Positions 5,081-34,466 of a stretch of DNA of 37,798 bases are shown here, one piece after another (the first letter of the stretch is position 1; each line of letters begins with the position of its first letter). Position numbers and translations under genes: made by a program. Under the pieces are notes generated by a model that had not been told where the DNA came from, searched no databases, and saw nothing but the letters and a program-made list of their open reading frames with translations. The stretch is from a virus: UHGV virus genome UHGV-1315295, one strand, 5' to 3'.

Positions 5081-5260
5081 CCACTTCATCTACACTCGCG
5101 GCATTGGAAGCAAAGATATGGTCGTCTGGCACCTGATGCACATTGATAAGGCTATCAACCACACGCTGGAGAAGTTCTTTCCACCAGCCTGAACACAATG
5201 ATTGTGCGCCTTATAGCGCCCATTAAGATAGATAAGTACTTACCAATAAGGAGAAAACAC

Positions 5261-5536
5261 ATGAAGACTTTGGTTCGCATTTCATCTAGTACCGACTATG
5301 ACGTTTACCCGTTGTTCATGATCAAGTGCGACGGGCTGAACGATGAAGAAATTCAAGCGGCAATTGAACGCAATCTAGTTGAATACACAGGAATGGATGC
5401 GGATTCTATTTATATCGATGATGACGGTGTTTGTTGGCACAACGGTAGCTGCTGGTACGTCGACGACACAATGCTGGTAAGCGATGAAGACGCGGCCCAT
5501 CTTGAGCGCATTTTGGGTATCAGCACTTTTGAGTGA
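5261..5536 (+). CDS. Hypothetical small acidic protein (91 aa)
   Basis: ATG 5261 preceded by AGGAG; ORF track frame; start context AGGAGAAAACACATG shared with other genes in the window. Confidence 0.45.
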   Translation: MKTLVRISSSTDYDVYPLFMIKCDGLNDEEIQAAIERNLVEYTGMDADSIYIDDDGVCWHNGSCWYVDDTMLVSDEDAAHLERILGISTFE

Positions 5537-5751
5537 TATTTACAGCAAAAATATATAAGTTAGCATTTACCTATCATTAAAATTTTATTAGATATCACGT
5601 TACTTATTACCTCGATAGCCTTTGTGCTCGACTGCATCTTCACAGGGGCAATCCGTAAAGCGCTGGCGCCTGTTAATGATGTGATGATCAATGCGCTGGC
5701 CGTAGTACTGGTCTTCGACTCAGCATTAGGCGTTTTCAAAGGAGTCGTGGC

Positions 5752-6087
5752 ATGAAGAAAACAGCCCTGGTACTGGCGCTGCTCACTCTCCCCGTCTTTG
5801 CGGACACACATGTCTATGAGTGCGAAATGTTTGTGGTCGAAGCGAAAAACGGCCTGATCCGCAACGTCGTCAAAGCTAATTACGGCGCGATGGTTGTGGA
5901 CCGCGGCGAACAGTTTTATGTGGTACGCGATAATCGTGTCCTGTCTTCCCCGTTTCTCACTAAACGTAACGGCGAACTATCTGGCGTAGGTAAAGATAGG
6001 TTCGTTTACAACAAATCGGGTGATGTATACGGCGTTCACGCGAAGAACGACAGCTACCTTTTCGATGACTGCAAGGAGATTAGTTGA
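5752..6087 (+). CDS. Hypothetical secreted protein (predicted N-terminal signal peptide)
   Basis: MKKTALVLALLTLPVFA-DTH: charged N-terminus, hydrophobic core and A-x-A-like cleavage region; GGAG RBS. Confidence 0.5.
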   Translation: MKKTALVLALLTLPVFADTHVYECEMFVVEAKNGLIRNVVKANYGAMVVDRGEQFYVVRDNRVLSSPFLTKRNGELSGVGKDRFVYNKSGDVYGVHAKNDSYLFDDCKEIS

Positions 6088-6299
6088 TGGCGGTTACACT
6101 GACAGGTCTGGAAATCGAAAAAACAAGCGGCTACTGGCGTGCCAAAGGGTTCAAGCAGTCCGGCGTACTGGAACGACTGGAACGTGAAGATGGGTATATT
6201 GTTCACCAGCGACGTGAATGGCGCATGTACGATCCGGAAACAGGTAAGCTCGCAACGAAGGCCGGGACACTCTGGGGTCTGCTGAAGAAAATCCACTGA
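6084..6299 (+). CDS. Hypothetical protein (71 aa)
   Basis: ORF track; start overlaps the upstream stop, suggesting translational coupling with 5752-6087. Confidence 0.4.
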   Translation: MMAVTLTGLEIEKTSGYWRAKGFKQSGVLERLEREDGYIVHQRREWRMYDPETGKLATKAGTLWGLLKKIH

Positions 6300-6308
6300 T
6301 AACACTAT

Positions 6309-6946
6309 CCACTGCGGTGAGTAGCCAGCTCACCGCGTGTGAATCCGGCTCATAACCACTGTAGCGAGTAGAACACCCTTCAGGTATGCACCCCAACCAC
6401 TGTAGTGAGTAGAACACCATTCGGGTATGCACCCCAACCACTGTAGTGAGCAACCCCCCTGCCACGATATCAACTATCCACTGTAGTGAGTAAATTGGTG
6501 ATTATCGGGGTCGCTATACACTGTAGTGAGTAAACAGGCGTTCACTGACTACAAACAACCACTATAGAGAGTGATGGAATGCTCCCTCCAGCGGATATCC
6601 ACTATGGAGAGTAAATCTTCGCTGTTTTAAACGGATATCCACTCACTACAGTGGATAGAGGTCAAGTCAGCCAATTCTGCTCTTCACAGTGGATAGTCAA
6701 CAATGAGGAGAGCGACGATAACCGCTGTAGAGAGTAGACTTAACAGAGATACCCAGTGACCGCTAACCTCTCAGCCCTTGTTTTATCTATGTTTGCAACC
6801 ACTAACATTTACTTCGCGATTTGTGCGCACTGCCTACAGTGGTTATTCTTCGGTTTCTTTTACTCACTACAGTGGATATTGCATTTCCGATAAACAAAAA
6901 GGCTCACTACAGTAGATAGTGAGCCTTTTTACTCTCTACAGTGGTT
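6309..6946. repeat. Iteron array downstream of repA (incA-like copy-control locus): about 15 copies of CCACTGTAGTGAGTA-type repeat in both orientations
   Basis: Copies at 6309-6323, 6356-6370, 6397-6411, 6438-6452, 6478-6492, 6518-6532, 6559-6573, 6599-6613, 6722-6736 (forward) and 6641-6654, 6682-6696, 6834-6846, 6861-6878, 6903-6918, 6931-6946 (reverse); includes a 41-bp tandem duplication 6356-6396/6397-6437. Confidence 0.8.
6896..6930. terminator. Bidirectional hairpin terminator at the repA 3' end, incorporating an iteron
   Basis: AAAAA-AGGCTCACTA-cagtag-TAGTGAGCCT-TTTTT: 10-bp perfect stem with A-run and T-run on either side. Confidence 0.5.
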
Positions 6947-6949
6947 GGG

Positions 6950-8005
6950 CTATTTGCGAGCCTTTGCCTTGCGCAGCTCTTCGAGAATCGCCAGTTCTTC
7001 CTTGCTCAACATGACCATTTCCCCGTCTTTTTCTTCAGGGGCAACATCGATAATGTCCTCCGGATCATCACCTGGCAAGATATCTTCTGGCTCTTCAGGC
7101 GTAGCCATAGATGGCGGCAGTGCCGAACGTAACTTCGGCCGTCTATAGTGGATGACGAAGTAGACCGAGCTGCCGCGTTTCACTTCAGTGTAATCGAGAT
7201 AGCCGATCTCTCGCAGCTGCTCCATCGCCTTCCTGACTGTCGCATTCTGGGTAATGGTGCGGCTGGTTAAGTTAAGTCTGGCGCGTAAGCGAGCCAATGA
7301 GATTGGCGCCGGGTCTGGTGGCAAACTTTCAATGAAGGTGTAGAGCGCCTGCGCGGATTCTTTTCTGGAGAGTTCGTTGATGGCCCGAAGTTGCAAAAGC
7401 ACCTTTTTGTCGAACTGGTAAAGTTCGAAAATCTTAGGATCGGCCTTCAGTTCGACCGTGTCATTCTTGGTACTGTACTTTGCCGTCTGCACAAGGTGCG
7501 TAACGTAATACTCTTCAGAGCCTTTGCTGCGGAATGAGATGGTGTTTGTGGCGATACGACTTAGAGAGCTGTCCAGGCGCTTACGTAACTTCGCGGACGA
7601 TCTGGCTGTTGGTATGCCACAAAGTCTGACGAACTCGACGAACGGCAACGTGACGGTGTCACCAACAACCTTGTGCTTGGCGAACGCGTGGATGATGCCC
7701 ACCCATGTTTTGAAATCGTTATCCATATCAAGACGAAGACCAGCAATCCTTATATCCTCGTACCCTTCGGCTTTGGCCAGAGACAGCTGTTTGAGTTCAG
7801 CGGAGGCGTCCATAGAGACCATTTGCCCCTTTCTACCCCTGGATGTCGATTTCAGCGTCGGAACGAAGAGACCAAGACGCATCAGAGCAACAGGTTGAAC
7901 TGTGTTGTTGGTGTTAGGAACTAACGTAACAACTTCGCCGGTCTTTTTGTCTGTTTCGGAAAATGCTTCGCTTATCGCAATGTTTTTATTGTCGTTTACG
8001 CTCAT
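6950..8005 (-). CDS. repA: Replication initiator RepA (P1/IncY-type iteron-binding initiator)
   Basis: 351 aa; blocks [64 protein letters not shown] match my recollection of P1 RepA; flanked on both sides by iterons. Confidence 0.8.
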
Positions 8006-8048
8006 TCCAAATGTCTCTTTTTATTCGACGGCTTGGGTGCCTTTACTG

Positions 8049-8168
8049 ATTACAGTGGATAGTAGCACCCATCACAGTGGTTATCCTACCGCCTACAGCG
8101 GTTTTTCTACTCTCCATAGTGGTTGATTTACTCTCTATAGTGGTTGTTATTCTCACTATAGTGGATAT
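8049..8168. repeat. Iteron cluster 1 upstream of repA (origin/incC-like), 6 copies
   Basis: ACAGTGGATAG, CACAGTGGTTAT, CTACAGCGGTTTT, CTCCATAGTGGTTG, CTCTATAGTGGTTG, CACTATAGTGGATA; same family as the downstream iterons. Confidence 0.75.
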
Positions 8169-8214
8169 CGATAACCTCTAAAGCCATGTGGCACAACGGT
8201 TTGCAGGGGCCGGG

Positions 8215-8273
8215 GATCTCTTTGGGTCTTTGTGGTTCTCTTTGGTTCTAACAGGGATCTGAATTACTGGATC
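8215..8273. promoter_or_regulatory. GATC cluster 1 (3 Dam sites) adjacent to iteron cluster 1
   Basis: GATC at 8215, 8256, 8270 within GGGATCTC / GGGATCTG / GGATCGAG heptamer-like units. Confidence 0.4.
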
Positions 8274-8446
8274 GAGCCTGTGTATAAAAATCAGATAATT
8301 ACAAAATCAGGCATCACTCCCCTTCTGGGGATAATGTGTGATCGAAATAAACACGCCGCAACGCAAAATTTACAATATTTCCAAGAATATCAGCCATCTG
8401 CCGCAGAAAAACAGGCTCGGAGTTATCCAGTTAAAACATTGTCTCC

Positions 8447-8551
8447 TACTCACTACAGTGGATACCGACTACTCTCCAGAGAGGTTGTTTTGCTCTTCAT
8501 AGCGGTTATTATGCTCTCTACAGTGGTTATTTTGCTCCCTATAGTGGATAG
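8447..8551. repeat. Iteron cluster 2 (5 copies), a second origin-like module
   Basis: TACTCACTACAGTGGATA, CTCTTCATAGCGGTTAT, CTCTCTACAGTGGTTAT, CTCCCTATAGTGGATAG plus one degenerate copy. Confidence 0.7.
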
Positions 8552-8590
8552 TAACCCCTTCTCAAGCCAGTAACCGCAAGCGCTGGAGAC

Positions 8591-8648
8591 GATCGGGGAT
8601 CTCTTTTGATCTTCTGTAGGATCTCTCTGGGGATCTAAATATTGGATC
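8591..8648. promoter_or_regulatory. GATC cluster 2: six GATC sites in 58 bp
   Basis: GATC at 8591, 8598, 8608, 8620, 8632, 8645; the flank resembles the 8205-8280 segment (duplicated module). Confidence 0.5.
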
Positions 8649-8747
8649 GGACCTGTGAATAAAGTGAATAAGTAAACAGGCATTTGCAAACTCCGGTGCG
8701 CCTTATCCGTTATCGTTGCCCCGGACAAAATTATTTGAACAAGAATT

Positions 8748-9392
8748 ATGGATCTTAAACGCACGCGCTGGGTTCGCCGTCTTGAAGATGGCTCCTACAC
8801 CATTGAATCAAACACTAGTCTGAACAAACTGAAGTTGCTCTGCGACCTTTGCGGCATTGCTTCGAAATGCCCGATTAACGAAACCCGGCTTAAACTCCAC
8901 GACGCCGGTGCGCATTTCCACCTAAACAGCTGCATACGTTACGTGCCACTACTAGCATTTCGTAAACCGATCATCGGATTGGATGCTCCCTACTTCAACA
9001 CACTGCGCTCTGGTGTCACTTGGCGAGATCGTGTCGAACCTGGCAAACTCGTTTGTCTGGTTGAAGCTGATACCGGAAATATCATCCGGTTCGGGAGAGT
9101 TGATAAGGTCTACTCAGGCCCGGTGGATGAAATGCTGCGGAAACACAGCCGATTTAACCATCTCTGCATGGGCGGAGAGAAGATTGAGAAGGTTGGCGAA
9201 GTAATTCGCAAATCTTACGGACACTTTCTGAATGATAACAGCCTTCTGACAGCCATTTACATTCGCCATGTCGATCGGGAGTTCGACACGGAGTATCACA
9301 GTGTTGAAGAGTTGAATCTTGTAGACCCTCGTCCAAAAGCTGGGGTAATAGACATCAGCAGAGCGCGTCAGAAGCCCTCAGAGACGTTTTAA
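8748..9392 (+). CDS. Hypothetical protein (214 aa)
   Basis: ORF track; first gene after the origin-like region. Confidence 0.5.
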   Translation: MDLKRTRWVRRLEDGSYTIESNTSLNKLKLLCDLCGIASKCPINETRLKLHDAGAHFHLNSCIRYVPLLAFRKPIIGLDAPYFNTLRSGVTWRDRVEPGKLVCLVEADTGNIIRFGRVDKVYSGPVDEMLRKHSRFNHLCMGGEKIEKVGEVIRKSYGHFLNDNSLLTAIYIRHVDREFDTEYHSVEELNLVDPRPKAGVIDISRARQKPSETF

Positions 9393-9788
9393 AGGCAAAC
9401 TCATGCTTTTTACCGGGCATAAAATATGGTGTCTTAGAAAGACACTGAGAGCTTTAGGGATTAATGCATGAGTGAATTTTATTCAAGAGCAGAAACTGTG
9501 GCCGACGGATGCGTTTGAAGACGACGCACGCAAACGCCGTAGATGTCATCTCACAACTTCACCGTCCGTTCTCCTTTTTCATTTCTTGTCATCAGTAAAT
9601 GACTGCTCTCATAAAATTGCTTGTGACGTTTAGAAATCGTTGCTGCCCTATCTGATAGGTATTTACTTACTTATTTTTTTGTCATTATCATGTGCCTTTA
9701 TATTCTTTTGTGTTCCGTGTTGTCTGGGTTGTATGCCTCTTATGCACGCTTAGAATTTGTATCAAAATAACCACAAAGGAAAAGACAC

Positions 9789-13020: not shown

Positions 13021-13756
13021 CTTGAGCCGCACGCAGTTTTTGCAGATGTTTGCCGTGATGCAGTCTATAAAGCTGATAAACAACCATACAGCAAAAGTAA
13101 CTCCGCCTGCACTTTTGTGGAAAAACGTAAACATCAGCGACGACCAGTTCTCGGTATTAACTAATCTATTGTCATCGACTCCTTTGATGCCGAGCTTGGC
13201 TAATCTGCCGTCAGGAAGCACTGCGCCGATCCTTATTAATCCATTTACGGAAGGTGGATATCTCCCACATTCTGGGCCGGGGTTCGTTGTGATTCCTGAA
13301 ACCGGAACGCTGAACATCCAAGAAAATGCACTCTTCAATGCAATGGAGACGCACATCAGCACCGCATTCACTAATCTAATTCGACACGCTAACGCACGCG
13401 CGGATCACGTTGCAATGCCGGGTGCTGCCTTCGCCAGCTTCTCTGTTGACTATGACCGGCACGCGCCAATTTCAAAGCGGGCGAAACTCTGCTTTTACGA
13501 GGAGGGATGTGAAGTAGCGATTATTGAAGTTCTCCTCCCCCACGTATTCAACGCGAATGAAAAGGCTGCGTGCCAACTTATTGACATCATGCGGCATTTC
13601 ATCGGCCAGAGCATGATCGATGCAGACATTGCTGCAGGCGTTCTGATCAACGATAGCATTCACGTTGTTAGCGACATTCCGAAGCCGCCAACTCGCGAGC
13701 CGGAGAAGACACTTGAACAGAAACTAATGGAATGCCCAACCTGGGCTACGTGGTAA
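13010..13756 (+). CDS. Hypothetical protein (248 aa)
   Basis: ORF track; GAGGGG RBS; start overlaps the sbcC stop. Confidence 0.5.
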   Translation: MSFNLSRTQFLQMFAVMQSIKLINNHTAKVTPPALLWKNVNISDDQFSVLTNLLSSTPLMPSLANLPSGSTAPILINPFTEGGYLPHSGPGFVVIPETGTLNIQENALFNAMETHISTAFTNLIRHANARADHVAMPGAAFASFSVDYDRHAPISKRAKLCFYEEGCEVAIIEVLLPHVFNANEKAACQLIDIMRHFIGQSMIDADIAAGVLINDSIHVVSDIPKPPTREPEKTLEQKLMECPTWATW

Positions 13757-13767
13757 GGAGACCAAAA

Positions 13768-14508
13768 GTGAGAGGAAGAGCGACAAAATTAAGAAAAGAT
13801 GCGAAACCTATCAATCCCGACGATTTCGACGGAAATTTCATTAGAGAGTTGGAGCCAATATTTGATTCAAGGGGGCGTAAACGCCGAATTGTTGAGCTTG
13901 AATGCTTTATCTGCGGTCATCGATTCTCTGCAAACCTTGAGAACGCGAAGCGAGTCAGACAGAAGACCTGCTCAAACAAATGTGCCGGAATATATCGCCA
14001 GAACGCAGAATATAAAGTCATGGAAAACCCTCTGTACTGGACTTGGGCAAGTATGAAGGCGCGTTGTAACAATCCAAATCGGGCAAGATACGAAAAGTAT
14101 GGAGGACGGGGAATATCTTACGCCATCGGGTTCGAGGATTTTGATAATTTTTACAGGTATGTTTCCGTACTTGAGGGCTATCCGTTTTCCGATACGGAGA
14201 GAGTTGTAGAGGGGGTTACGCTTGATCGCATCGACTCCAGCAAGGGATATGAACCAGGGAATCTGAGGTGGGCTGACAAGCACGTCCAGAGTGCAAATAA
14301 ACAAGGGAAAGTGGATGGTAGTACGTCGAAGTTTACTGGCGTTCATTACTGCAAAACGAACAAGGTTTGGGTTGCTAGAGTTGTGTGGAAAGGAGAGTGT
14401 GTCTTCTTGTATCAATGTCACGATGAATTGGAGGCTTACTTAGCGCGTAAGCGATTTATCGAAGAGCACAATCTACCGCATTTTGTTGAAATGGAGGTCA
14501 CAGAGTGA
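13768..14508 (+). CDS. HNH homing endonuclease with AP2-like C-terminal DNA-binding domain
   Basis: HNH-type block VTLDRIDSSKGYEPGNLRWADKHVQSANK; C-terminal GVHYCKTNKVWVARVVWKGE resembles AP2 domains of phage HNH endonucleases; GTG 13768 has a consensus AAGGAG 7 nt upstream (track start 13732 is an alternative). Confidence 0.55.
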   Translation: MRGRATKLRKDAKPINPDDFDGNFIRELEPIFDSRGRKRRIVELECFICGHRFSANLENAKRVRQKTCSNKCAGIYRQNAEYKVMENPLYWTWASMKARCNNPNRARYEKYGGRGISYAIGFEDFDNFYRYVSVLEGYPFSDTERVVEGVTLDRIDSSKGYEPGNLRWADKHVQSANKQGKVDGSTSKFTGVHYCKTNKVWVARVVWKGECVFLYQCHDELEAYLARKRFIEEHNLPHFVEMEVTE

Positions 14509-15074: not shown

Positions 15075-15112
15075 GTTGATAATTGATAGGTAAGTGCTTA
15101 TCTATTACCATG

Positions 15113-15138
15113 AGGCCACTATATATAGTGGTCTTTTT
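15113..15138 (+). terminator. Rho-independent terminator
   Basis: AGGCCACTAT-atat-ATAGTGGTCT hairpin followed by TTTTT. Confidence 0.55.
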
Positions 15139-15339
15139 AATTGGGCTACACATAATAAGCATCGTAAAACGTAACGCCCACCGAGCCGCTGCCAGCTGCA
15201 TGAAGCGCTGACAAAGTTCGCTGTCGATTGCACTGGCCCGAGCCAGTTCGAATACCTCTAAGCCGAGTTTAACCACTTTGTGGCCTGGCGCTGCTGGGTC
15301 AAAATTGGCGTATCAAAAGAAGTCTAAAGGAAAGAAAAC

Positions 15340-16218
15340 ATGAAATTTACGAAACTGACCGATCATCTGAAACTTGCCGCAGACAAACTCGTGGGGTTTA
15401 AACCAGAGCCTTACGAGTTGAATCCCGGTTTCGGCAAGACAACGGAAAGCATCTACCTGATGGTTGACCAGTTCCACACACTGTTTCAGCACCCACGCCG
15501 TGCCATTCCAGATCCGGCATTACTGCGTCTGCGTGCCAAGCTGATCCACGAAGAAGCAGTTACCGAGGGCATCCCGGCAGCCAAAAATGGGGATATGACG
15601 GCACTGCTGGACGCGATGGCTGACTTCCTTTACGTGGGCGTCGGCACAATGGTGGCCATCAAAGGCGGCATCTCGACGGGCATGAGTTACTACACCCAAG
15701 AGCAGAGTGTTGATCGCTTCATCCACACCATCATGGTTCCGGGCAACACGGTCTTTGACGATATGGCTATCCCGTTTGAAGAAGCAAAAGAAGCTGCATT
15801 AATGCTGAATGCGCTGGCTGACAAACTTGAAGCGAAGCCGATAAGCGATTCCGAATTGGTGCAGGAGCTGCGCCGCGTGATGAACAAAATCTACGTTGCC
15901 TGCATGATGACCTACCGTCTGGCTGATTTTCTCGGAATCGATATTGTTGAGCTGGTGGCAGAAATCCACCGTTCCAACATGACCAAGCTGTGGCCGGCTG
16001 ACGCCGAAGAGCGTCGTGTGGCGGTAGAGAATTGCAAATATGACAAGGAAGACCTGGGCTTCCGCCATGCTGAAGGGACTGACATGATGATCGGTTTCAG
16101 GGTTTCTGATGGCAAGATCCTCAAATCTCCCACCTACAGCGATGTGGATCTGACTTGCTTTGTTGAGAAGGCGAAGTCCTCATCTCTTTACGAGATGGTA
16201 AAAAATAATTGTAAGTGA
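15340..16218 (+). CDS. MazG-like nucleoside triphosphate pyrophosphohydrolase (putative)
   Basis: HEEAVTEG...LLDAMADFLYVGVG resembles the MazG/HisE EExxE...D motif; a second related half follows; nucleotide-metabolism context. Confidence 0.4.
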   Translation: MKFTKLTDHLKLAADKLVGFKPEPYELNPGFGKTTESIYLMVDQFHTLFQHPRRAIPDPALLRLRAKLIHEEAVTEGIPAAKNGDMTALLDAMADFLYVGVGTMVAIKGGISTGMSYYTQEQSVDRFIHTIMVPGNTVFDDMAIPFEEAKEAALMLNALADKLEAKPISDSELVQELRRVMNKIYVACMMTYRLADFLGIDIVELVAEIHRSNMTKLWPADAEERRVAVENCKYDKEDLGFRHAEGTDMMIGFRVSDGKILKSPTYSDVDLTCFVEKAKSSSLYEMVKNNCK

Positions 16219-16280
16219 GTACTTATCATTATATATTGCCTTGGCGTGTTTTATTGTCCAAGTTCTTAATTGCTCATTGC

Positions 16281-16310
16281 AATGGTGGCCGAAGAGCCAC
16301 CATTTTTTTT
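16281..16310 (+). terminator. Rho-independent terminator
   Basis: AATGGTGGC-cgaagag-GCCACCATT followed by TTTTTTTT. Confidence 0.65.
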
Positions 16311-16385
16311 ACTCCCCTCCTAGCCTTACACACTTCTGACAGATAAACTTGTATAAAATAATAGGTATGTAATTACTTATCTTGT

Positions 16386-21204: not shown

Positions 21205-21224
21205 ATAGGTAAGTATTTACCTAT
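21205..21224. promoter_or_regulatory. Palindrome ATAGGTAAGTATTTACCTAT (family 1) 12 nt upstream of the Dam-like gene start
   Basis: Near-perfect 20-bp palindrome; one of about 10 family members. Confidence 0.4.
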
Positions 21225-21236
21225 CAGAGTAAAGTA

Positions 21237-21830
21237 ATGATCGCAGCCGAAAAAATCAAAAAGCGAGAGCGTGATGCCTCTCTTCGCGACCTTTGGCGAA
21301 CACCGCAGTGGTTGTTTGTCGCCATCCAACGTTACATAGGCGTAAAGTTCGATGTGGACGTCGCCTGCAACAAAGATAATGCTCTCCTGCTGAACTTTAT
21401 CGGTGTTGAGCGTGATGCGCTCAAGTGCAGTTGGGGAGAACCTGGCACTGTGGCGTTCCTTAACCCGCCCTACTCCAAAATCACCCCCTGGATAGACGCA
21501 GCCATTCGCGAGCAGGCGCGTGGAGTGACGACGGTCATGCTGATACCACAATCCCTCGATACGCAGTGGTACGAGCGTGCGGCTGAATGCGCCAACGAAA
21601 CCGTCATCTTGTCTGGCGGCCGCGTGGCGTTCGTTGAGCCGGATGTTGAACTTGGGCTGGTGGAGGTGAACATCAACCCTGGTGGCAGCATGTTGCTTAT
21701 CTTCCGTGGCTACTGTCAGGAAGCTGGGCACACCATCAGCAAGATACCGCTGGCGGTGATGAAAAAGCTGGGTGGTTATGACCCTGCCAATGTTGTCAGG
21801 AAGAAGAGACCACGTAAAAAGGCAGCGTAA
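21237..21830 (+). CDS. Phage-type N6-adenine DNA methyltransferase (Dam-like)
   Basis: LWRTPQWLF...VDVACNKDNA...AFLNPPYS (NPPY catalytic motif); layout typical of phage Dam-type methyltransferases. Confidence 0.75.
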   Translation: MIAAEKIKKRERDASLRDLWRTPQWLFVAIQRYIGVKFDVDVACNKDNALLLNFIGVERDALKCSWGEPGTVAFLNPPYSKITPWIDAAIREQARGVTTVMLIPQSLDTQWYERAAECANETVILSGGRVAFVEPDVELGLVEVNINPGGSMLLIFRGYCQEAGHTISKIPLAVMKKLGGYDPANVVRKKRPRKKAA

Positions 21831-22032
21831 ACACCAGTCTGGGAGTTAGTTTGAGAACCTGCTTCCGTATATATAAATAACTAAGTACTAATTATTAATA
21901 TATACAGACGCAGGCTTTTTAAGACGTGATTTCCAAACAACTCCCAGACCGTTTTACACCTCCAGAACCCACTGGAGTCCCTCTCCAGACGCTCTAGAAT
22001 CGATTTTATGAACCACAGTAAGGAAAACTATC

Positions 22033-22263: not shown

Positions 22264-22280
22264 TAGGTAAGTACTTACCA

Positions 22281-22309
22281 TTCAAAACGCCACTAACCAG
22301 TGATACAAT
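22281..22309 (+). promoter_or_regulatory. Candidate sigma70 promoter with extended -10: TTCAAA - 17 bp - TGaTACAAT
   Basis: -35 TTCAAA 22281-22286, TG 22301-22302, -10 TACAAT 22304-22309; reads into a 540-bp region with no credible ORF. Confidence 0.45.
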
Positions 22310-22856: not shown

Positions 22857-23465
22857 ATGACGACCAAGAACCCAGTCCGGCAACGCACTGGCTGCCGCAC
22901 GAAGTCTAAAGCCAGATGCCAAACCCACCAGCATTCCCGTACCAATTTCAACACACCCGTAGTCGAGTTCAATCCCCAGCTCAAAACCGTAAAAGTATTC
23001 AGTGATGGCTCCTGCCTCAAAAATCCGGGCGGGCCGGGCGGTTACGGCATCGTTCTCCAGTATCGAGGCGAAGAGCGCGAGCTTTCTGAGGGCTTCCACA
23101 GCACGACCAACAATCGGATGGAGATGATGGGCGCCCTGATTGCGCTGGAGCGTCTGAAGTACCCCTGCAACGTGATCCTGCATTCCGACAGCCAGTATCT
23201 TAAAAACGGCATGACGCTCTGGATGAAAGGCTGGAAGCGTAACGGATGGATCACGTCTGAGAAGAAGCCAGTCAAAAACGTGGATCTCTGGAAACGTCTC
23301 GACGCGGCCGCCAGTCGTCATAATGTCCGCTGGAAGTGGGTTAAAGGCCATGCAGGTCATCGCGAGAACGAAATGTGTGACCGTCTGGCGAAGATCGCCG
23401 CCTATTCCGCAGCTGATATGCCTCACAAGCATGATATTGGGTTTTTGTCACAAAAAGATAAGTAA
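22857..23465 (+). CDS. rnhA: Ribonuclease HI with a ~45-aa basic N-terminal extension
   Basis: [20 protein letters not shown]...[16 protein letters not shown]...HSDSQY...[20 protein letters not shown] matches RNase HI throughout; GGAG RBS before ATG 22857. Confidence 0.8.
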
Positions 23466-23607
23466 GTATTTACCTACTATAATAAATCAGGTATCTTATA
23501 AATCGTCAGGATGACGAAGTACCGGTTAGGTACGGTTCCAGGATGGAACGCCAAAAGGCGGCTGGCCAAGCCAGCCGCAACTCTTTCTGACACTGAATGG
23601 AATCCAC

Positions 23608-27735: not shown

Positions 27736-27755
27736 TAGGTAAGTACTTACCTAAT
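27735..27755. promoter_or_regulatory. Palindrome TAGGTAAGTACTTACCTA (family 1) overlapping the methyltransferase-fusion stop codon
   Basis: Perfect 18-bp palindrome. Confidence 0.4.
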
Positions 27756-28723: not shown

Positions 28724-28769
28724 AGTTGCGCAGGGAGAGAGAGAAATCGACGCAGAGCAGGCCCGCAAT

Positions 28770-28985
28770 ATGTGGGACGAGGCAGAAAACGCTGATGACG
28801 TAAAAGAAAGTTGCTGCTGTTTCGGTGTCGGTAACGAACTGCTGAGTCTGTTTGGTGACGATCCGTGGTATGCCGGTTGGCCAACGGTGCCAAACCCCAG
28901 ATACCAATACCTGGAACGTATTATGTACGCGGTACGTGATGGGCTGAAAGAGCTTCACAATCAGATGAGAGAAGCAATCGGTTAA
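28770..28985 (+). CDS. Hypothetical small protein (71 aa); possibly the 3' part of a frameshifted gene
   Basis: ORF track; its frame is open from 28683 without an ATG. Confidence 0.3.
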   Translation: MWDEAENADDVKESCCCFGVGNELLSLFGDDPWYAGWPTVPNPRYQYLERIMYAVRDGLKELHNQMREAIG

Positions 28986-29023
28986 GTGCTATAGTCAGGC
29001 GCTTTTATATTTATGGAGTGAAT

Positions 29024-29722: not shown

Positions 29723-30167
29723 GCCAGATAAGGCCACTATTTGTGGCCTTAAACAATTTGTTTAATTAGTGGTGTAATTATTGGAATCCCAGGCGAACTA
29801 AATCCATTGGGCAGAACAGATCTTCCACACCTTCGATAGACACGCAGTCAGAGCGGCGTAATTGTTCTTCTGATTTGCCTTCCCCACTGATTTCTCTGAT
29901 TACTCCCGTTGCGCCATTCATTGCCACCATGACATGGCTGCCGATAGTGATAGCATTACGGTTTCGATCATACGTCTTTATCGTTTTCTCCTTTCACATG
30001 GGGCAAATCAGGTTTCAAAAATTGCCGTTTTCCATGTATATGCGATTTGCAAAATATCAATTTCCTAAACAAATTGTTTTCACCAGCTAGTTATTACACA
30101 CAGGCGAAGTTGACCGCGCTTCATATAAATATCACTGTTTATACATACAGTGTATAAGAGGAAAAAA

Positions 30168-30434
30168 ATGGGCGGAAAAGACTCAAGCTATCAGATCGTT
30201 TACAGAGGTGAGACGCTCGAAAACTTTAAACCGGGGCAGTATGTCTTCTTTCAACGAGCGAAGGAGTATGGCGGCGGATATTGGTTGGGCAGGACTCATG
30301 AAGATGGGTTCGAGTTTTTGCTGGAGGAGCCAACCTCGCTGGGAAGAGGTTTTGAGTTTCTGATAACTCACTCGAGCGTGGAGGCCAGATTTATGGAGTT
30401 CGTCGACGATGCGGACGACTTCAAACTCACCTAA
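30168..30434 (+). CDS. Hypothetical small protein (88 aa)
   Basis: ATG 30168 in frame with the track ORF; purine-rich RBS. Confidence 0.45.
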   Translation: MGGKDSSYQIVYRGETLENFKPGQYVFFQRAKEYGGGYWLGRTHEDGFEFLLEEPTSLGRGFEFLITHSSVEARFMEFVDDADDFKLT

Positions 30435-30519
30435 TCATCCCTTAAACATCTTGTTTTCTGCCTTTTGTTATTTGAGATAATAACAACAATTAGAAAACAA
30501 GTTGTTTAAGGAATCATCC

Positions 30520-30756
30520 ATGTTTGGAACCGCAAAAGAGCTTATCGAAAAGCTGGAGAACTACCCAGAAGACGAGCCGCTGCTGATGGTTGTGTGGCAT
30601 AAGGAAGACGTAGGCGAAGTACGCCCAGACCTTACTGACTATCAGTGCGCCCAGGTCTTGCGCAGAATCAAAGAGTGTCATGATGCCAATATCGGCGTGA
30701 ATTGGGACGTTATCTCTGACACGGCCGACATCCTGTTTCCGAAGGAGAAGGCATGA
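30520..30756 (+). CDS. Hypothetical small acidic protein (78 aa)
   Basis: ATG 30520 with AAGGA RBS immediately after the palindrome at 30493-30509. Confidence 0.45.
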   Translation: MFGTAKELIEKLENYPEDEPLLMVVWHKEDVGEVRPDLTDYQCAQVLRRIKECHDANIGVNWDVISDTADILFPKEKA

Positions 30757-31073
30757 TGCTGATATTGAAAGAATCCTATAAGACCGCAGTGATCAGCACC
30801 GCCCATGTCACGGCCAAAGACTCCGAGCTGCTGCCTGTCGTGTGCTTTGACCCGTTGACCGATCGCGGGTTGAATTGGGTACATGGTACACAGTACGGCT
30901 GGATTGTTCGTGCTGGAATGCGAGGGAATGACTGGAAAGAAGAGCTGCGTGAGTATGGCATTTCCGAAGAGACGATCTCCAACATACAGACCATAGTGGA
31001 TGCCGGGTATGATTCGGTACAATTTGACTGTGATGCGGAGCTGGTGGATGGGATGCCAGCATGGGATTGGTAG
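30753..31073 (+). CDS. Hypothetical protein (106 aa)
   Basis: ATGA overlap with the upstream gene. Confidence 0.45.
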   Translation: MMLILKESYKTAVISTAHVTAKDSELLPVVCFDPLTDRGLNWVHGTQYGWIVRAGMRGNDWKEELREYGISEETISNIQTIVDAGYDSVQFDCDAELVDGMPAWDW

Positions 31074-31088
31074 ATATAGCTACTAGCA

Positions 31089-31715
31089 ATGGCGGGAATA
31101 ATTACCTGGAAAGTTGATATCATATACCCGCTTGTATTTCAAAATGGAATGGATGTAATGGAAATCGATACTTTAGAAAAAAAATCAGTTAAAAACCTCT
31201 ACGCGTGGCTTATAGCAATACTGCCGTTTGTTGTCAGCGTCCCCCCTGCTGAGTACGACAATTACGTTATGGTGATTTCGCTCGTCATTGGGCTTGGACT
31301 GCTGGTCGCCGATCGCATGAATTTGACTGAGGCAGGCTATGAGCCACCATCATTCTTATGTGGGTTCTTTATCCCCCCTGTGTATCTCTGGAAACGAGCG
31401 ACGGTTCTTGGAAGTAACCGACTGCTGTTTATCGTATGGATTGTTGCCTTTGCTGCATCATTTTTCGTGTATAGCTTCAACACAGATTCAGCGCTTGAAG
31501 AAGCTGCTTGTCCTATAGTTACCACTATTCTGAAAGAAAATAACGGTTCAGAAGCATCTAAATGCATGAAGGTAACAATTCAGGACAAAGTGACGGACAA
31601 GTTCTACAAAGCCACGGCTACACTGGATAACGGTAATGACATTAACATCACTATCGAAATTATCGGTGACGAGAATTTCTACGTTCGCGTGCCTAATTAC
31701 TACCTAAACGACTAA
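31089..31715 (+). CDS. Hypothetical membrane protein (2-3 predicted TM segments)
   Basis: Hydrophobic segments LYAWLIAILPFVVSV, VMVISLVIGLGLLV, LLFIVWIVAFAASFFVY; start ambiguous (31089, 31149 or 31158). Confidence 0.45.
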   Translation: MAGIITWKVDIIYPLVFQNGMDVMEIDTLEKKSVKNLYAWLIAILPFVVSVPPAEYDNYVMVISLVIGLGLLVADRMNLTEAGYEPPSFLCGFFIPPVYLWKRATVLGSNRLLFIVWIVAFAASFFVYSFNTDSALEEAACPIVTTILKENNGSEASKCMKVTIQDKVTDKFYKATATLDNGNDINITIEIIGDENFYVRVPNYYLND

Positions 31716-32111
31716 CGGCTGCAACTCGTTGACATTGGCGGTCACAAATTGAGGATTTCTATAAGAGTCCGTTGATCGCCACTTCCCCCACCTCTCCAAC
31801 CTACCCCAGCCCAGGCGTGACAAGACATTTAAGCCAATTACAACCATAAGAAAACAAATAAATAACACGTCAACGAAAAGTCAACGCTTTCCCCTGATTT
31901 GGTCTAAAAAGTTGACGTTTTCGCAAGCCATCTCTTATACCCAAAATCCTGCGCACCAGAATCCATCTCCCTGCGACCAAAACGTCAAAAACGACTCGTG
32001 ATATCACTCAAAAACAGAAGCGCTCAGAAGCGCTCCCGTTGCGTTATATTGGGTATCTAAACAAGTTGTTTTCAGGCATAAGAAAACAAGTTAACCACCC
32101 CCACAGGAAAC

Positions 32112-32380
32112 CCAGAGACGCCATTACCCAATACACGGAGAAGAACAGCCAGAACGAAACCCCGGACAAACCCAGACAAGAACAGGAGCCGTCACAATCT
32201 CGTTTACCCACCATTACCCCGAAAGAGAGCGCAAATTCCTGAATAGCAGGGAACGCCATTACTTCATATGCGGAGAACAACTAAAGCGCCCTACTGCCAT
32301 TACCCACACTTTCATCATTTCACGTAAACGAAGAGAAAAGCGCACCTGCCATTACTCCATACACGGAGAAGAACAATCAC
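32112..32380. repeat. Four direct repeats of a ~25-bp unit GCCATTACyy.ATAyrCGGAGAAGAACA in a T-poor noncoding tract
   Basis: Copies start near 32112, 32253, 32290, 32344. Confidence 0.5.
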
Positions 32381-32670
32381 CAAAACGACGAGAACAACCC
32401 AGACGAAAACACAGAGAAGAACCACCTCAAGAAGAACGAAACCACATACGCCGGTAGAGAGTACAAACCACCCATTTCACCCACAGGAATAGTCGCCGTA
32501 TTGAGCGTTATCAGAGAGAAGGTTTATGCCCACATAAGAGAGAAAATTCGTGGGAGGTATAAGTGGGAAGGGAAGGAGGGGTATCGCTACTTTTTCCGCA
32601 TAAATTCAAGCCATAGTTTTCGTCCCCCGTAACGTCCCTTTCCACCCCTTCGGTCAGCCTTCGGGCCATC

Positions 32671-32850
32671 CAGGGAAAAGGCCATGTCCCTTTTCAGAAA
32701 CGGGAGCGTCGCCGCAGGGAAAAGGCTGGAGGTTTTCAGGGAAACGGTGGGAATCCCGCTATACGAACCGGGAAAAGGCTGGCTGCCGGTCGGGAAACGG
32801 GTACATCCCGGTACAGAGTGAGGGACGACTGCGAGAGCGGTGCGGGAAAT
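32671..32850. repeat. Six direct copies of C(A/C)GGGAAA(A/C)GG-type motif in GC-rich noncoding DNA
   Basis: Copies at 32671, 32715, 32737, 32768, 32791, 32843; related copies in other intergenic regions. Confidence 0.5.
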
Positions 32851-33185
32851 CTTCGGGAGTGCGCCTTGCTCTTCGCTCGCCTGAAAATCGCGAGGGAGTG
32901 TCGTTCCCTCTCGTGCAGCTGCTGAACTCCATTCTGCCAGACCATCCTCGGGTCTCAAGCGATTTCAGTAGGTTTTCGGGGAGAAGAAAATTCTGCCCAC
33001 CAGCCCTGCGGCGCGCGTAGAGCAGAATATCGTAAATACTGGTTCCCGTGTCGTTCCCGGATACTCACTACCCAGCCTGGCTTTCCCGACATAAAATCCT
33101 TTTTCGCCTTTGTCTTATTGCGATAATAACACCAACAAGTAAACAACATGTTTAGACGTTATATAAACGAAGTGAGGATGAAGAG

Positions 33186-33404
33186 ATGATTAAGATGCCT
33201 GTGACGGTTGAGGTGTGGGGCGTGGATTCCCTGGCTGAGTGTCTGAATGCAGTAGGGCCGGAGTTGTACCGCAAGTTGTGGTCGTTCGTCCCGGCAGAAG
33301 GGGAATCGCCCAAAGGGAAGGATATCTGGCACCTGCTGAGTGAAGATGAAAAGCGGGAGCTGGTGGGCGCGGTACACAGCGAGTTCCCGGACGACGAAGA
33401 TTAA
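33186..33404 (+). CDS. Hypothetical small acidic protein (72 aa)
   Basis: ATG 33186 with GAGGATGAAGAG RBS region. Confidence 0.45.
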   Translation: MIKMPVTVEVWGVDSLAECLNAVGPELYRKLWSFVPAEGESPKGKDIWHLLSEDEKRELVGAVHSEFPDDED

Positions 33405-33408
33405 GAGT

Positions 33409-33434
33409 GAGGCCACCAGCACGGTGGCTTTTGT
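33409..33434 (+). terminator. Rho-independent terminator
   Basis: GAGGCCACC-agcac-GGTGGCT followed by TTTTGT. Confidence 0.55.
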
Positions 33435-33516
33435 CGCTATTAACCTCCGGGGCAGCGCAGCACCGTAACGATATACTTTGTGGCCGTTTTCTTACTGGTA
33501 TTGTTTACGCAATTCA

Positions 33517-33533
33517 GAAAACAACATGTTTAA
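33517..33533. promoter_or_regulatory. Palindrome GAAAACAACATGTTTAA (family 2) overlapping the RBS of gene 33544
   Basis: Embedded in conserved block TTTACGCAATTCAGAAAACAACATGTTTAAGG. Confidence 0.4.
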
Positions 33534-33543
33534 GGATTGCTTT

Positions 33544-33873
33544 ATGTTTGCAAATATCGACATCAACCAAATCAAGAAAATGACTCAAAAAGAGTTTGAC
33601 CAGTTTTATGAGTTAGAAGGTTGGTCTTCCACGCTGATCAATTCGCGCTGGGTGCTTGAGCTGATGACTCGTGATGATGCTCCTGCTTTGATTATTTGCG
33701 ACATGGGTGAAGATGCTGACTTTATGGATATGAGCGAATTTTGTGTGGACACATACAACCGCAGCCAGAAGTACTACTTCACATGCGATAGCGAGAATGA
33801 CGTGATTTCTAAGCTCTATCTTCACCTTGTCCAGCATTGGGACGTGCAGGAATTCCTTGAGTTATTCGCGTAA
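33544..33873 (+). CDS. Hypothetical small acidic protein (109 aa)
   Basis: ATG 33544 with AAGGA RBS. Confidence 0.45.
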   Translation: MFANIDINQIKKMTQKEFDQFYELEGWSSTLINSRWVLELMTRDDAPALIICDMGEDADFMDMSEFCVDTYNRSQKYYFTCDSENDVISKLYLHLVQHWDVQEFLELFA

Positions 33874-34007
33874 GCCCAACCAAAGCCAGCACCGCCTGCT
33901 GGCTTAACTTCTCTGTAGCCGCAGGGAAGAACCACCTTTAGATAATTCATGTGCCTGAGCAATATGCTTTGTAGCCGTTTTTACACTGGTATTATTTACG
34001 CCATTGA

Positions 34008-34024
34008 GAAAACAATTTGTTTAC
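34008..34024. promoter_or_regulatory. Palindrome GAAAACAATTTGTTTAC (family 2) upstream of gene 34034
   Basis: Embedded in TTTACGCCATTGAGAAAACAATTTGTTTACGG, ~80% identical to 33481-33540. Confidence 0.4.
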
Positions 34025-34033
34025 GGAGTGGTG

Positions 34034-34345
34034 ATGAATACTTCATTGGTGCTGAGTCTTGCTGAAGGCCAGGAGAGAAAAGAAAAACCAACCTTAATGG
34101 GGCATCTCACATTGCTGGATATCGTAGCGAATGGGACTTCTATCCGTCTGTTTCGTGAAAAAGCCATTACCTTCGACGCGGGCAATTTTACGCGCTATGT
34201 GATGGTAGTTCGTCGCGAGCGTGGAAGAGGGTGGATGTCGGTCCAGAAAATGTGGCCAGAGGACCAGCTTGAACTGGCGCTGATGGAAGCCAACCGTGTC
34301 GCCCAACAAGAGATCCAACGAGCGTCTGTTCAGGCGGTAGCTTAA
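34034..34345 (+). CDS. Hypothetical protein (103 aa)
   Basis: ATG 34034, GGAGTGGTG RBS. Confidence 0.45.
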   Translation: MNTSLVLSLAEGQERKEKPTLMGHLTLLDIVANGTSIRLFREKAITFDAGNFTRYVMVVRRERGRGWMSVQKMWPEDQLELALMEANRVAQQEIQRASVQAVA

Positions 34346-34379
34346 ACATGTGCAAGCAGTAGTTAGTCGAATGTACGAC

Positions 34380-34407
34380 AGCCCCGCCAATCCTTCGGGG
34401 CTTTTTT
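34380..34407 (+). terminator. Rho-independent terminator
   Basis: AGCCCCG-ccaatcctt-CGGGGCT followed by TTTTTTG. Confidence 0.65.
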
Positions 34408-34466
34408 GTATTGTAAGTACTTACTTATGATAATAAAATTAAAAATTAAACACTAAGGAGAGTGAA

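Follow-up and report, generated by a model that had tools for sequence, protein, structure and literature searches.

The question raised by this locus is why a short palindrome recurs at its gene junctions and what factor, if any, it serves. The stretch of DNA analyzed (the window, 37,798 nucleotides) is identified from its sequence as an E. coli SSU5-type phage-plasmid, and its 99% identity to E. coli plasmids points to E. coli as the host. SlmA, an antagonist of FtsZ, is an E. coli protein that stops cell division across its DNA. The palindromes are, on balance, probably an array of binding sites for the host SlmA (SlmA-binding sites, SBS) that would load this FtsZ antagonist onto phage-plasmid DNA. 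If this is true, a phage-plasmid with about 26 copies of the site probably borrows a division-control protein of its host.

Enrichment and position of the palindromes

A first-pass annotation of the window had listed ten main and two weaker copies of the palindrome. The family is real: 11 of the 12 listed copies were verified, against 0 expected by chance, and the 11 verified 18-mers comprise the ten main copies together with the weaker copy near 5560. The other weak copy, at 21879-21895, scored less than 6 bits and was removed; it forms the apex of another inverted repeat (21858-21914), whose arms are 26 nt long. Copy number was well above expectation in shuffles of the window. TAGGTAAGTACTTACCTA with at most 3 mismatches was matched 8 times (0.00 expected, 100 dinucleotide shuffles), and the 14-mer core was matched 11 times (0.82 expected). 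A symmetrised weight matrix returned 10 sites at a threshold of 14 bits and 11 at a threshold of 10 bits, where Markov shuffles would give about 0.03-0.17. The true length of the palindrome is about 22-24 bp, with wwRA-TARGTAAGT to the left of the center and ACTTACYTA-TYww to the right. The sites are listed below by window coordinates, without strand.

5229..5246, SBS-like palindrome TAGATAAGTACTTACCAA, core ATAAGTACTTAC with 1 mismatch to GTRAGYRCTYAC; 14 nt upstream of the ATG at 5261; SSU5 orthologue at 57747
5556..5573, weaker SBS-like site TAAGTTAGCATTTACCTA; half-sites GTTAGC and GTAAAT are those of the verified chromosomal SBS12 and SBS17; orthologues in SSU5, Cyrano, and pJN2-26
9656..9673, SBS-like site TAGGTATTTACTTACTTA, one half-site perfect, T-run after; within a 397-bp spacer upstream of an sbcD-like gene
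15087..15104, SBS-like site TAGGTAAGTGCTTATCTA, begins 12 nt past the RuvC-like stop
16212..16229, SBS-like site TAAGTGAGTACTTATCAT, left half GTAAGTGAGT exactly the E. coli SBS consensus; contains the TGA stop of the upstream gene
16362..16379, SBS-like site TAGGTATGTAATTACTTA, 18 nt upstream of the thyX start, on the far side of a terminator (16281-16304) from the preceding site
21206..21223, SBS-like site TAGGTAAGTATTTACCTA, right half ATTTAC as in SBS17; 13 nt upstream of the methyltransferase ATG at 21237
22264..22281, perfect-core site GTAAGTACTTAC, begins immediately past a TAA stop
23459..23476, SBS-like site TAAGTAAGTATTTACCTA, holds the stop codon of the RNase H gene; 18/18 identity in SSU5 and pJN2-26
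27736..27753, perfect 18-mer TAGGTAAGTACTTACCTA, begins immediately past the TGA of the DUF4942 methylase gene
34410..34427, perfect-core site (ATTGTAAGTACTTACTTA), just 3' of an intrinsic-terminator-like hairpin; 39 nt upstream of the ATG at 34467
36470..36481, possible extra SBS core GTAAGCGCGTAC, 1 mismatch, no TAA/TTA flanks; membership uncertain

The earlier description of the copies as lying in spacers, overlapping stop codons, or standing near starts and terminators holds. A stop codon lies within or abuts the motif at 16212, 22264, 23459, and 27736, and for the sites at 5229, 16362, and 21206 the next start is 13-18 nt beyond the end of the motif. Hairpins resembling terminators lie 3' of sites, with coordinates 15112-15135 (after the site at 15087), 16281-16304, and 23558-23578, and one lies 5' of the site at 34410.

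Conservation in related phage-plasmids

A search of related phage-plasmids, as had been proposed, found the motif in intergenic positions at orthologous gene junctions. In four relatives (103-113 kb each) every genome carries 21-26 strong sites where about 0.05 would be expected, and five perfect cores occur in a 113-kb plasmid where chance would give about 0.1 by our own estimate. The proposal that the copies define one regulon or element at 5.2-34.4 kb was too narrow, since the sites span the whole phage backbone of about 105-113 kb, structural genes included. About 90% of the sites are intergenic (91%, p = 4e-48), and they hug the edges of spacers at a median of 14 nt past the stop, or 11-18 nt before the start when the stop is distant. 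SSU5, Cyrano, and pJN2-26 retain 10 or 11 of the 11 window sites at orthologous junctions. In the two distant genomes the motif is 86-91% identical, versus 48-58% in the flanks, and the same core stands at orthologous junctions in a distant relative contig with only 30-55% protein identity. The palindrome sites are conserved under selection.

It is extremely improbable that the motif is a selfish or structural repeat with no binding factor, whether REP/MITE-like, a recombination hotspot, or a PeSL-like shuffling cassette. The copies are indeed multiple, palindromic, and intergenic, and T4-type phages carry repeated promoter/stem-loop cassettes, but conservation is limited to just 18-24 bp with flanks that share nothing between copies, and column by column it follows a protein-recognition pattern. 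The sites also keep orthologous positions across divergent genomes instead of shifting location, and recently acquired cargo (type I restriction-modification genes and a fimbrial operon) is free of them.

DNA site or RNA hairpin

Both a dimeric DNA-binding-protein site and an RNA-processing hairpin had been suggested for the palindrome. Compensatory variation between the arms is absent: Watson-Crick pairing is as frequent as independent arms would give (for pair 3/16, 26 observed versus 24.8 expected, and 13 A.C mismatches), and mismatches of the A.C type are common. The hairpins have predicted energies between 0 and -7.3 kcal/mol, and two window sites, 5229 and 23459, do not fold at all in RNA prediction. 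Independent arm variation together with weak or absent RNA hairpins therefore indicates a symmetric protein site on double-stranded DNA rather than an RNA element; the palindromes act as double-stranded DNA, and the first of the two suggestions is the one supported.

An RNA role, either as a hairpin for termination, stabilisation, or processing or as the target of an FljA-like RNA-binding protein, is very unlikely, even though the sites are transcribed junctions, some have T-runs after them (9656), some copies fold with z-scores of about -4, and the family has kept a full-length homologue of FljA (PF03614, E = 1e-80). Most of the AT-rich stems have no U-tract, and both arms are conserved as mutual reverse complements, which a single-strand binder would not need.

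Match to the SlmA-binding site

The SBS rule GTGAGTACTCAC was defined by Tonthat et al. (PMC3020112), with G, T, A, and G critical at positions 1, 2, 4, and 5, any purine accepted at position 3 (G to A, Kd about 60 nM versus about 50 nM), and any pyrimidine at position 6. The phage core GTAAGTACTTAC fits the experimentally defined rule GTRAGYRCTYAC as a position-3 variant. Relative to the SBS ChIP consensus (AAGTAAGTGAGCGCTCACTTACGT, quoted in PMC4423959; also written TAAGTGAGCGCTCACTTA), the phage 18-mer is identical at 14 of 18 positions, TAAG/CTTA flanks included, and the remaining four differ by an R/R or Y/Y change, each where tolerance has been shown. With at most 1 mismatch, GTRAGYRCTYAC was matched 9 times in the window (0.81 expected); of the 67 strong sites, 44 agree with the SBS at 7 or more of its 8 critical positions, and in 59 one or both half-sites are perfect. 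Judged by sequence, the phage sites match the specificity rules of SlmA, and the first-pass option of a nucleoid-associated factor gains support from this match to the site of a nucleoid-occlusion protein. Perfect cores were looked for in the first 50 kb of P1 and none were found.

Compared with the E. coli chromosomal SBS (Cho et al. 2011; Tonthat et al. 2011), the phage sites share the 12-bp palindromic core GTRAGYRCTYAC within a palindrome of about 20 bp, the TAAG/CTTA flanks, and half-site variants (ATTTAC and GTTAGC occur in the verified SBS17 and SBS12). They differ in density, about 1 per 4 kb of backbone versus 24-52 per 4.6 Mb (about 1 per 90-190 kb), and the putative phage sites are AT-rich. 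Against SlmA, A stands at core position 3 in 60 of 67 phage sites, and G never does in three reference genomes; the phage center is T.A, whereas the chromosomal consensus prefers G at position 3 and a C.G center; and the nominally critical A4 and G5 are kept in only about 80% of phage half-sites.

The six-frame ORFs of four genomes contained no homologue of SlmA or TetR (best E about 2), and an element without its own SlmA can use such sites only through the host protein. The SlmA recognition helix is reported to be conserved in Salmonella and Klebsiella (PMC3020112). From the published specificity, SlmA would be expected to occupy the sites in vivo.

Phage-encoded regulators

The palindromes could instead be operators of a dimeric regulator encoded by the phage, their likeness to SlmA sites being coincidence or mimicry, but this is unlikely. 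The regulator might be a global prophage silencer, on the model of the mycobacteriophage L5 stoperators, the conserved phiC31 inverted repeats, or the P1 C1 operators, or else a P1 Lpa-like activator. The genome-wide, intergenic, stop-overlapping pattern resembles that of L5 stoperators, phiC31 inverted repeats, P1 C1 operators, and T1/Stevie 22-bp repeats, all of which are dozens of copies of a short motif in small intergenic gaps, often at stops. The phage sites exceed a minimal SBS in having A systematically at core position 3 and an outer TA that is strongly conserved, and the backbone encodes candidate proteins (the uncharacterised small proteins phrog_900 and phrog_4054, two ParB_N proteins, and the FljA-like protein). 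However, every difference from the SBS falls at an experimentally tolerant position, and a chance match would be on the order of 1e-4 or below by a rough estimate of our own. A TetR-like protein is not encoded, and the HTH candidates are not universal: the window lacks a homologue of SSU5_116, and SSU5 lacks the repressor that lies beside the integrase in Cyrano. Repressors encoded by the phages themselves bind the L5, phiC31, and P1 C1 motifs, and the sequences of repressor-bound repeats diverge along with immunity specificity. The present core is unchanged at 30-55% protein identity, as would be expected of a conserved host factor more than of an immunity repressor, which evolves fast. Stoperators, C1 operators, and T1 repeats are also asymmetric and orientation-dependent, whereas the present sites are palindromic.

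P1 late promoters, activated by Lpa and consisting of a 9-bp inverted repeat at -22 plus a -10 box, are similar in being multi-copy inverted repeats beside a -10-like hexamer on a phage-plasmid. Their repeat lies a fixed 4 nt from the -10, and they serve late operons only, whereas the hexamer accompanies about half of the present sites, on both strands, without fixed spacing, and early genes are preceded by sites as well as late ones. A conventional regulon under a phage regulator was not the best reading, given the backbone-wide spread, the skipped cargo, and the lack of fixed geometry.

Division control or transcription

About 500 SlmA dimers are present versus 24-52 SBS per nucleoid, and cells with both SlmA and a multicopy plasmid bearing two SBS suffer a lethal block of division, exerted by dispersed complexes on the plasmids (PMC3573117). 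On the reading of the palindromes as an SBS array, spacer edges would accommodate a palindrome of 18-20 bp that is AT-rich and full of stop codons, and the phage-plasmid DNA would become a surface that inhibits the Z-ring. In the plasmid state, at about 5 copies (about 5.5 in Cyrano), roughly 130-140 sites would rival or exceed those of the chromosome, and septation over unsegregated plasmid copies would be disfavoured. Once replication is lytic, dispersed SlmA-SBS complexes would number in the thousands and would impose a global division block, as with the synthetic multicopy SBS plasmid. Division control as the benefit of the sites is a further step, and one that we infer throughout. In the literature searched, no paper linking SlmA to SSU5-type phage-plasmids was found.

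Of 24 SBS on the E. coli chromosome, only 2 are intergenic (PMC5519180), versus about 90% of the phage sites, a bias that hints at a transcription-linked role or merely at coding constraints. The main rival is that SlmA does bind the sites but serves the phage-plasmid chiefly in transcription, as a repressor, roadblock, or insulator borrowed from the host for its gene junctions, which we consider possible but fairly unlikely. In one version, the sites would be occupied at plasmid copy number and titrated free on amplification, giving a copy-number-sensing release of lytic genes; if each site takes 2 dimers, about 26 sites at about 5 copies would need about 290 of the roughly 500 dimers, so the numbers make titration plausible. 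A promoter becomes SlmA-repressible when an SBS is put between its -35 and -10 (Psbs::lacZ; PMC3573117), and V. cholerae SlmA directly activates the chb promoter (PMC5519180). The 91% intergenic, spacer-edge placement also suits such a role, a -10-like TAtcAT stands at each end of the motif in about half of the sites, -10-like hexamers abut or overlap the motif in about 40-50%, and several promoter-like matches of a consensus scan overlap or abut sites. Against this, a fixed geometry to promoters (-35, -10), ribosome-binding sites, or terminators was looked for at the sites and none was found, and the -10-like hexamers are symmetric on both strands, i.e. they belong to the palindrome itself. 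Several sites separate co-oriented genes and have a ribosome-binding site directly after them, or stand before a terminator; an SBS upstream of a promoter had no effect on lacZ (PMC3573117), and a response of SlmA to any signal is not known.

Comparison with known division systems

The pUC-2xSBS plasmid (Cho & Bernhardt 2013, PMC3573117) is the direct precedent for the effect proposed during phage-plasmid amplification, in that its plasmid-borne SBS load SlmA and inhibit Z-ring assembly cell-wide. It is artificial and high-copy with two sites, and its lethality needs functional SlmA from an inducible construct, whereas the phage-plasmid array is natural and low-copy with about 26 putative sites and is amplified solely in lytic growth. 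The proposed outcome, a block of host FtsZ during phage development, is also that of P1 Icd, lambda Kil, and T7 Gp0.4, and P1, which encodes the division inhibitor Icd, is likewise a phage-plasmid. Those inhibitors are proteins, whereas the effector proposed here would be DNA sites co-opting a host protein. The secondary replicon of V. cholerae (the plasmid-derived Chr2) is said, in work of Galli et al. from 2016, to carry SBS that help license division. Intergenic SBS-bound SlmA can also regulate transcription in that species (chb promoter, PMC5519180). The V. cholerae sites differ from the present array in lying on megabase chromosomes with an SBS-free terminus, in not being viral, and in numbering 79 putative sites genome-wide, 25% of them intergenic.

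Recurrence of the palindrome

The first-pass annotation had proposed that an 18-20 bp palindrome recurs at gene junctions along the window, and the counts bear this out: eight matches to the 18-mer with at most three mismatches were obtained where none was expected, and 11 matches to its 14-mer core against 0.82 expected. Scoring with a symmetrised weight matrix yielded the 11 sites listed below.

Palindromic sites in the window, by start position
5229: palindromic site
5556: palindromic site
9656: palindromic site
15087: palindromic site
16212: palindromic site
16362: palindromic site
21206: palindromic site
22264: palindromic site
23459: palindromic site
27736: palindromic site
34410: palindromic site

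The earlier remarks on position were also correct, in that sites overlap stop codons, lie 13-18 nt ahead of some start codons and have terminator-like hairpins nearby. One of the weaker copies, placed at 21879-21895, had to be removed from the family because it forms the apex of a different inverted repeat (21858-21914). This separate structure (window 21837-21949) separates the methyltransferase gene from the ORF that follows, and its 26-nt arms (21858-21883 and 21889-21914, 85% complementary) are nested in a pair of 18-nt arms. AT-rich palindromes of the same appearance, also with weak scores, occur in Escherichia phage Cyrano at ~31180 and ~78100.

Identity of the element and its cargo

Positions 5088-37798 of the window are 87-93% identical to Salmonella phage SSU5, and E. 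coli IncFIB plasmids of 106-114 kb (e.g., the complete plasmid NZ_CP010244) share 99% identity with the window. By these sequence identities the window is assigned to an SSU5/pHCM2-type phage-plasmid of E. coli, of which it represents the replication, nucleotide-metabolism and accessory-gene section of the backbone. The inserted cargo at 185-5088 contains no site resembling a SlmA-binding site (SBS), and the two largest site-free gaps of NZ_CP010244 are also cargo, namely type I restriction-modification genes and a yeh fimbrial operon with a toxin-antitoxin pair.

Inserted cargo and a neighboring gene
185-4380: genes for a DUF4268 protein and a type I restriction R subunit, insertion relative to SSU5
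4461-5088: IS911-like fragment, insertion relative to SSU5
SSU5 96897-97343, Cyrano 100780-101301, pJN2-26 31722-32252, minus strand: FljA homologue, just past the 3' end of the window

Unlike SSU5, the window lacks nrdA and nrdB (region of 13732-14508 and 15087-15340). A 258-aa ORF at 13732-14508, before a RuvC-like gene, has no Pfam match, and a MazG-like gene (15087-15340 region) lies downstream of the RuvC-like gene, directly behind a palindromic site and a terminator. Right after site 5556, at 5574-5578, the homologue of SSU5_066 has ATT in place of the ATG start present in SSU5 and Cyrano (tcATGaaa), so that either an unusual start codon is used or the gene may have lost its function. 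For the methyltransferase gene SSU5_088, RefSeq places the start (position 77659 of the SSU5 genome) at a GTG within the palindrome; the corresponding triplet of the window is GTA (21213-21237 region), the ORF there starts with the ATG at 21237, and the RefSeq start is probably mis-annotated. Every SSU5-type genome examined has, conserved on its minus strand, a full-length homologue (PF03614, E = 1e-80) of the Salmonella phase-1 flagellin repressor FljA, and it also gave a weak Hfq-like match.

Conservation in related genomes

With the weight matrix, 24 strong sites were found in the complete genome of SSU5, 21 in that of Cyrano and 22 in that of Klebsiella phage pJN2-26, compared with about 0.05 in shuffled sequences; NZ_CP010244 has 26. 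The sites are distributed genome-wide, including the terminase/portal junction, the region after the major capsid gene and the region ahead of the lysis genes, and 61 of the 67 in the three phage genomes are intergenic even though these genomes are 87-88% coding (binomial p = 4e-48). For 10 or 11 of the 11 window sites, each relative has an orthologue at the same junction. Motif identity in Cyrano and pJN2-26 is 86-91%, as against 48-58% for the 30-nt flanks, and the same core, TTAAGTAAGTACTTACTTAA, stands at orthologous junctions of an IMG/VR contig of 103 kb with structural proteins only 30-55% identical to those of SSU5. The family of repeats is genuine and under strong selection. No site was found in the first 50 kb of phage P1, and a scan of nucleotide contigs with the 18-mer returned, among the matches listed, scattered single copies in unrelated MAGs and one Kluyvera contig.

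Anatomy of the site

Alignment of the sites revealed a palindrome of ~22-24 bp, wwRA-TARGTAAGT|ACTTACYTA-TYww, with no information outside it and no asymmetric flank. It is placed at the edges of spacers, at a median of 14 nt past the upstream stop codon and 44 nt ahead of the next start; where the upstream stop is 121-165 nt away, the next start follows within 11-18 nt. At every arm pair, Watson-Crick combinations occurred at the frequency expected for independently varying arms (for pair 3/16, 26 observed versus 24.8 expected, alongside 13 A.C and 10 G.T combinations). Predicted RNA hairpins were weak, ranging from 0 to -7.3 kcal/mol, with no fold at sites 5229 and 23459, and a T-run was present at few sites only. 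Because the arms vary independently and fold weakly, they are conserved for sequence and not for pairing, each arm toward its own sequence, the pattern that marks recognition of duplex DNA by a protein with two-fold symmetry. An RNA hairpin, whether an intrinsic terminator or a processing element, was rejected on the lack of covariation, the weak folding energies and the mostly absent U-tract.

Comparison with the SlmA-binding site

The core GTAAGTACTTAC, which resembles the binding site of SlmA, the nucleoid-occlusion protein and FtsZ antagonist of the E. coli host, was compared with the published specificity. Tonthat et al. (PMC3020112) arrived at GTGAGTACTCAC and tested mutations at every symmetric position; G1, T2, A4 and G5 were required, any purine was accepted at position 3 and any pyrimidine at position 6, and the SBS core rule is therefore GTRAGYRCTYAC. 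The phage core is the A3 variant of their consensus, and in their measurements the symmetric position-3 G-to-A variant had a Kd of ~60 nM versus ~50 nM. Under GTRAGYRCTYAC, three window cores are perfect and six have one mismatch, against 0.81 expected, and among the 67 strong sites at least seven of the eight critical positions are retained in 44 and a perfect half-site in 59. At core position 3 the phage sites carry A in place of G almost without exception, and A4 and G5 are kept in only ~80% of half-sites.

Cabré et al. (PMC4423959) quote the ChIP consensus of Cho et al., AAGTAAGTGAGCGCTCACTTACGT, whose central 18-mer is TAAGTGAGCGCTCACTTA; the extended SBS consensus spans ~20 bp, GTAAGTGAGCGCTCACTTAC, with TAAG...CTTA flanks. 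Compared with the central 18-mer, the phage 18-mer TAAGTAAGTACTTACTTA agrees at 14 of 18 positions, the TAAG/CTTA flanks included, and the four mismatches fall exactly where substitutions are tolerated, at positions 3 and 6 and at their mirror positions. The phage consensus TARGTAAGTACTTACYTA likewise agrees with the extended consensus at 14/18, and its flanking positions T1, A2, T17 and A18 hold 1.35-1.58 bits each. The half-sites ATTTAC and GTTAGC of window sites 21206, 23459 and 5556 also occur in the verified SBS17 (…GTGACCATTTACTTAC…) and SBS12 (…GTGAACGCTAAC…).

The host is in agreement as well, the plasmids 99% identical to the window being from E. coli and the specificity data being those of E. 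coli SlmA. The SlmA sequence, verified against PDB 3NXC, and TetR were used as phmmer queries, and no SlmA or TetR homologue was detected in any six-frame ORF of the four element genomes. Placement differs between the two sets: chromosomal SBS are mostly intragenic and away from promoters, only 2 of 24 in E. coli being intergenic (PMC5519180), whereas the phage sites lie overwhelmingly between genes. Intragenic placement is a property of the known SBS set and not of SlmA recognition, and the intergenic bias of the phage sites is partly forced, since on either strand two of the three frames through the AT-rich palindrome contain stop codons. It is likely that SlmA binds the sites, and an array of host SlmA-binding sites on the phage-plasmid backbone is the reading that accounts best for the repeat family; the sites would then be a known kind of site in a new setting. 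Of the other regulators compared (NarL, RcsAB, TrpR, AcrR, SlyA, LexA and others), presumably none fits the motif as SlmA does.

A further sequence, GTGACCGCTAAC at window 6756-6767, is located in the intergenic stretch ahead of repA and combines the left half of SBS17 with the right half of SBS12. It is without TAA/TTA flanks, scores poorly with the phage matrix, and might bind SlmA with low affinity close to the replication gene.

Promoter and operator models

Matrices for -10 and -35 elements were scored at all offsets around 61 sites. The only -10-like peaks were the ends of the palindrome itself, where TAtcAT at positions 17-22 (~53% of sites) and its mirror image scored alike on the two strands; no -35 signal was detected at any offset, and a consensus promoter scan gave no overall enrichment at the sites. 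Several junctions have a Shine-Dalgarno sequence or a terminator directly after the motif, and sites also stand ahead of replication and nucleotide-metabolism genes. The sites share no single transcriptional geometry. Late promoters of the P1 Lpa type, in which the centre of an inverted repeat lies at -22 with constant spacing to the -10 hexamer and which serve late operons only, were rejected, since the hexamer here lacks a fixed spacing, is found in about half of the sites on both strands, and early genes are included. The stoperators of mycobacteriophage L5, bound by the phage immunity repressor, are asymmetric and oriented one way relative to transcription, whereas the present motif is symmetric, with symmetric flanks and without divergence; membership in the stoperator or C1-operator class was rejected, and the resemblance was retained as a functional comparison.

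Pfam and PHROG scans of candidate regulators returned the FljA-like protein (PF03614), two ParB_N proteins and small proteins of unknown function. No candidate repressor common to all members was found, and no scanned candidate had a matching specificity; SlmA/TetR homologues are also lacking, and a phage-encoded binder was set aside. That some other phage regulator occupies the sites instead of SlmA is unlikely.

Possible role in division control

SlmA antagonises FtsZ only when bound to DNA. On an SBS it forms a dimer of dimers (PMC5519180), and E. coli has ~500 SlmA dimers and 24-52 SBS per nucleoid (PMC3573117). When functional SlmA is present, cells with a multicopy plasmid that carries two SBS are killed by a block of division, brought about by SlmA-SBS complexes spread through the cell (PMC3573117). 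At the copy number of Cyrano (~5.5), ~26 sites would amount to ~140 sites per chromosome equivalent, more than the chromosome's own, and with two dimers per site over half of the SlmA pool could be engaged. From this site load, the demand on SlmA and the multicopy precedent, two effects are proposed: in the plasmid state the element would extend nucleoid occlusion to itself, and during lytic amplification it would impose a global block of division.

Binding by SlmA with division control as the main benefit is the combined explanation that we favor, and we consider it somewhat more likely than not. More tentatively, the array of ~25 SBS in the SSU5/pHCM2/Cyrano family could constitute a DNA-encoded hijack of nucleoid occlusion, with the element as a mobile 'nucleoid' that couples septation to segregation in lysogeny, shuts down division in lytic amplification without a phage-encoded inhibitor and possibly senses copy number; P1, also a phage-plasmid, instead inhibits division by a protein, Icd. 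As a copy-number sensor, the same array would have bound SlmA silence the junctions until it was titrated out.

Bound SlmA might, alternatively, act mainly on transcription. The phage sites are 91% intergenic and lie at gene edges, unlike the mostly intragenic chromosomal SBS, an SBS within a promoter confers repression by SlmA (PMC3573117), and in V. cholerae the chb promoter is activated by SlmA (PMC5519180). The gene-edge bias is in part a consequence of the stop codons in the palindrome but leaves room for such a use. A mainly transcriptional role is judged unlikely.

If division control through SlmA is the correct reading, a natural mobile element with SBS at 25-50x chromosomal density would be new. 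To our knowledge, the SBS described so far are all thinly scattered chromosomal sites, whose function is to prevent the division ring from forming over DNA that has yet to segregate, and we know of no other phage or plasmid that exploits nucleoid occlusion via cis-acting DNA and not a protein inhibitor. Phage-plasmids of this kind are very common in E. coli, Salmonella and Klebsiella and often carry resistance genes; the mechanism would suggest how they secure inheritance or raise phage yield. At ~5 copies per chromosome, SBS of the element would outnumber those of the chromosome and could tie up much of the pool of ~500 SlmA dimers, and division control in carrier strains may therefore be measurably altered. 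Neither the motif string nor a link of SlmA to SSU5, pHCM2 or phage-plasmids was found in the literature searched, which left most subscription journals outside it and so falls short of proving novelty; one paper that mentions promoters together with SSU5/pHCM2 dealt with a different element.

Canonical sites in other viral contigs

The canonical G-type SBS 18-mer, TAAGTGAGYRCTCACTTA, was found in seven viral loci on IMG/VR contigs unrelated to SSU5. In four or five of the seven, another copy, perfect or nearly so, is found at a distance of 0.2-1.7 kb, the copies flanking small genes, and palindromes resembling the SlmA site may be used by other phages too.
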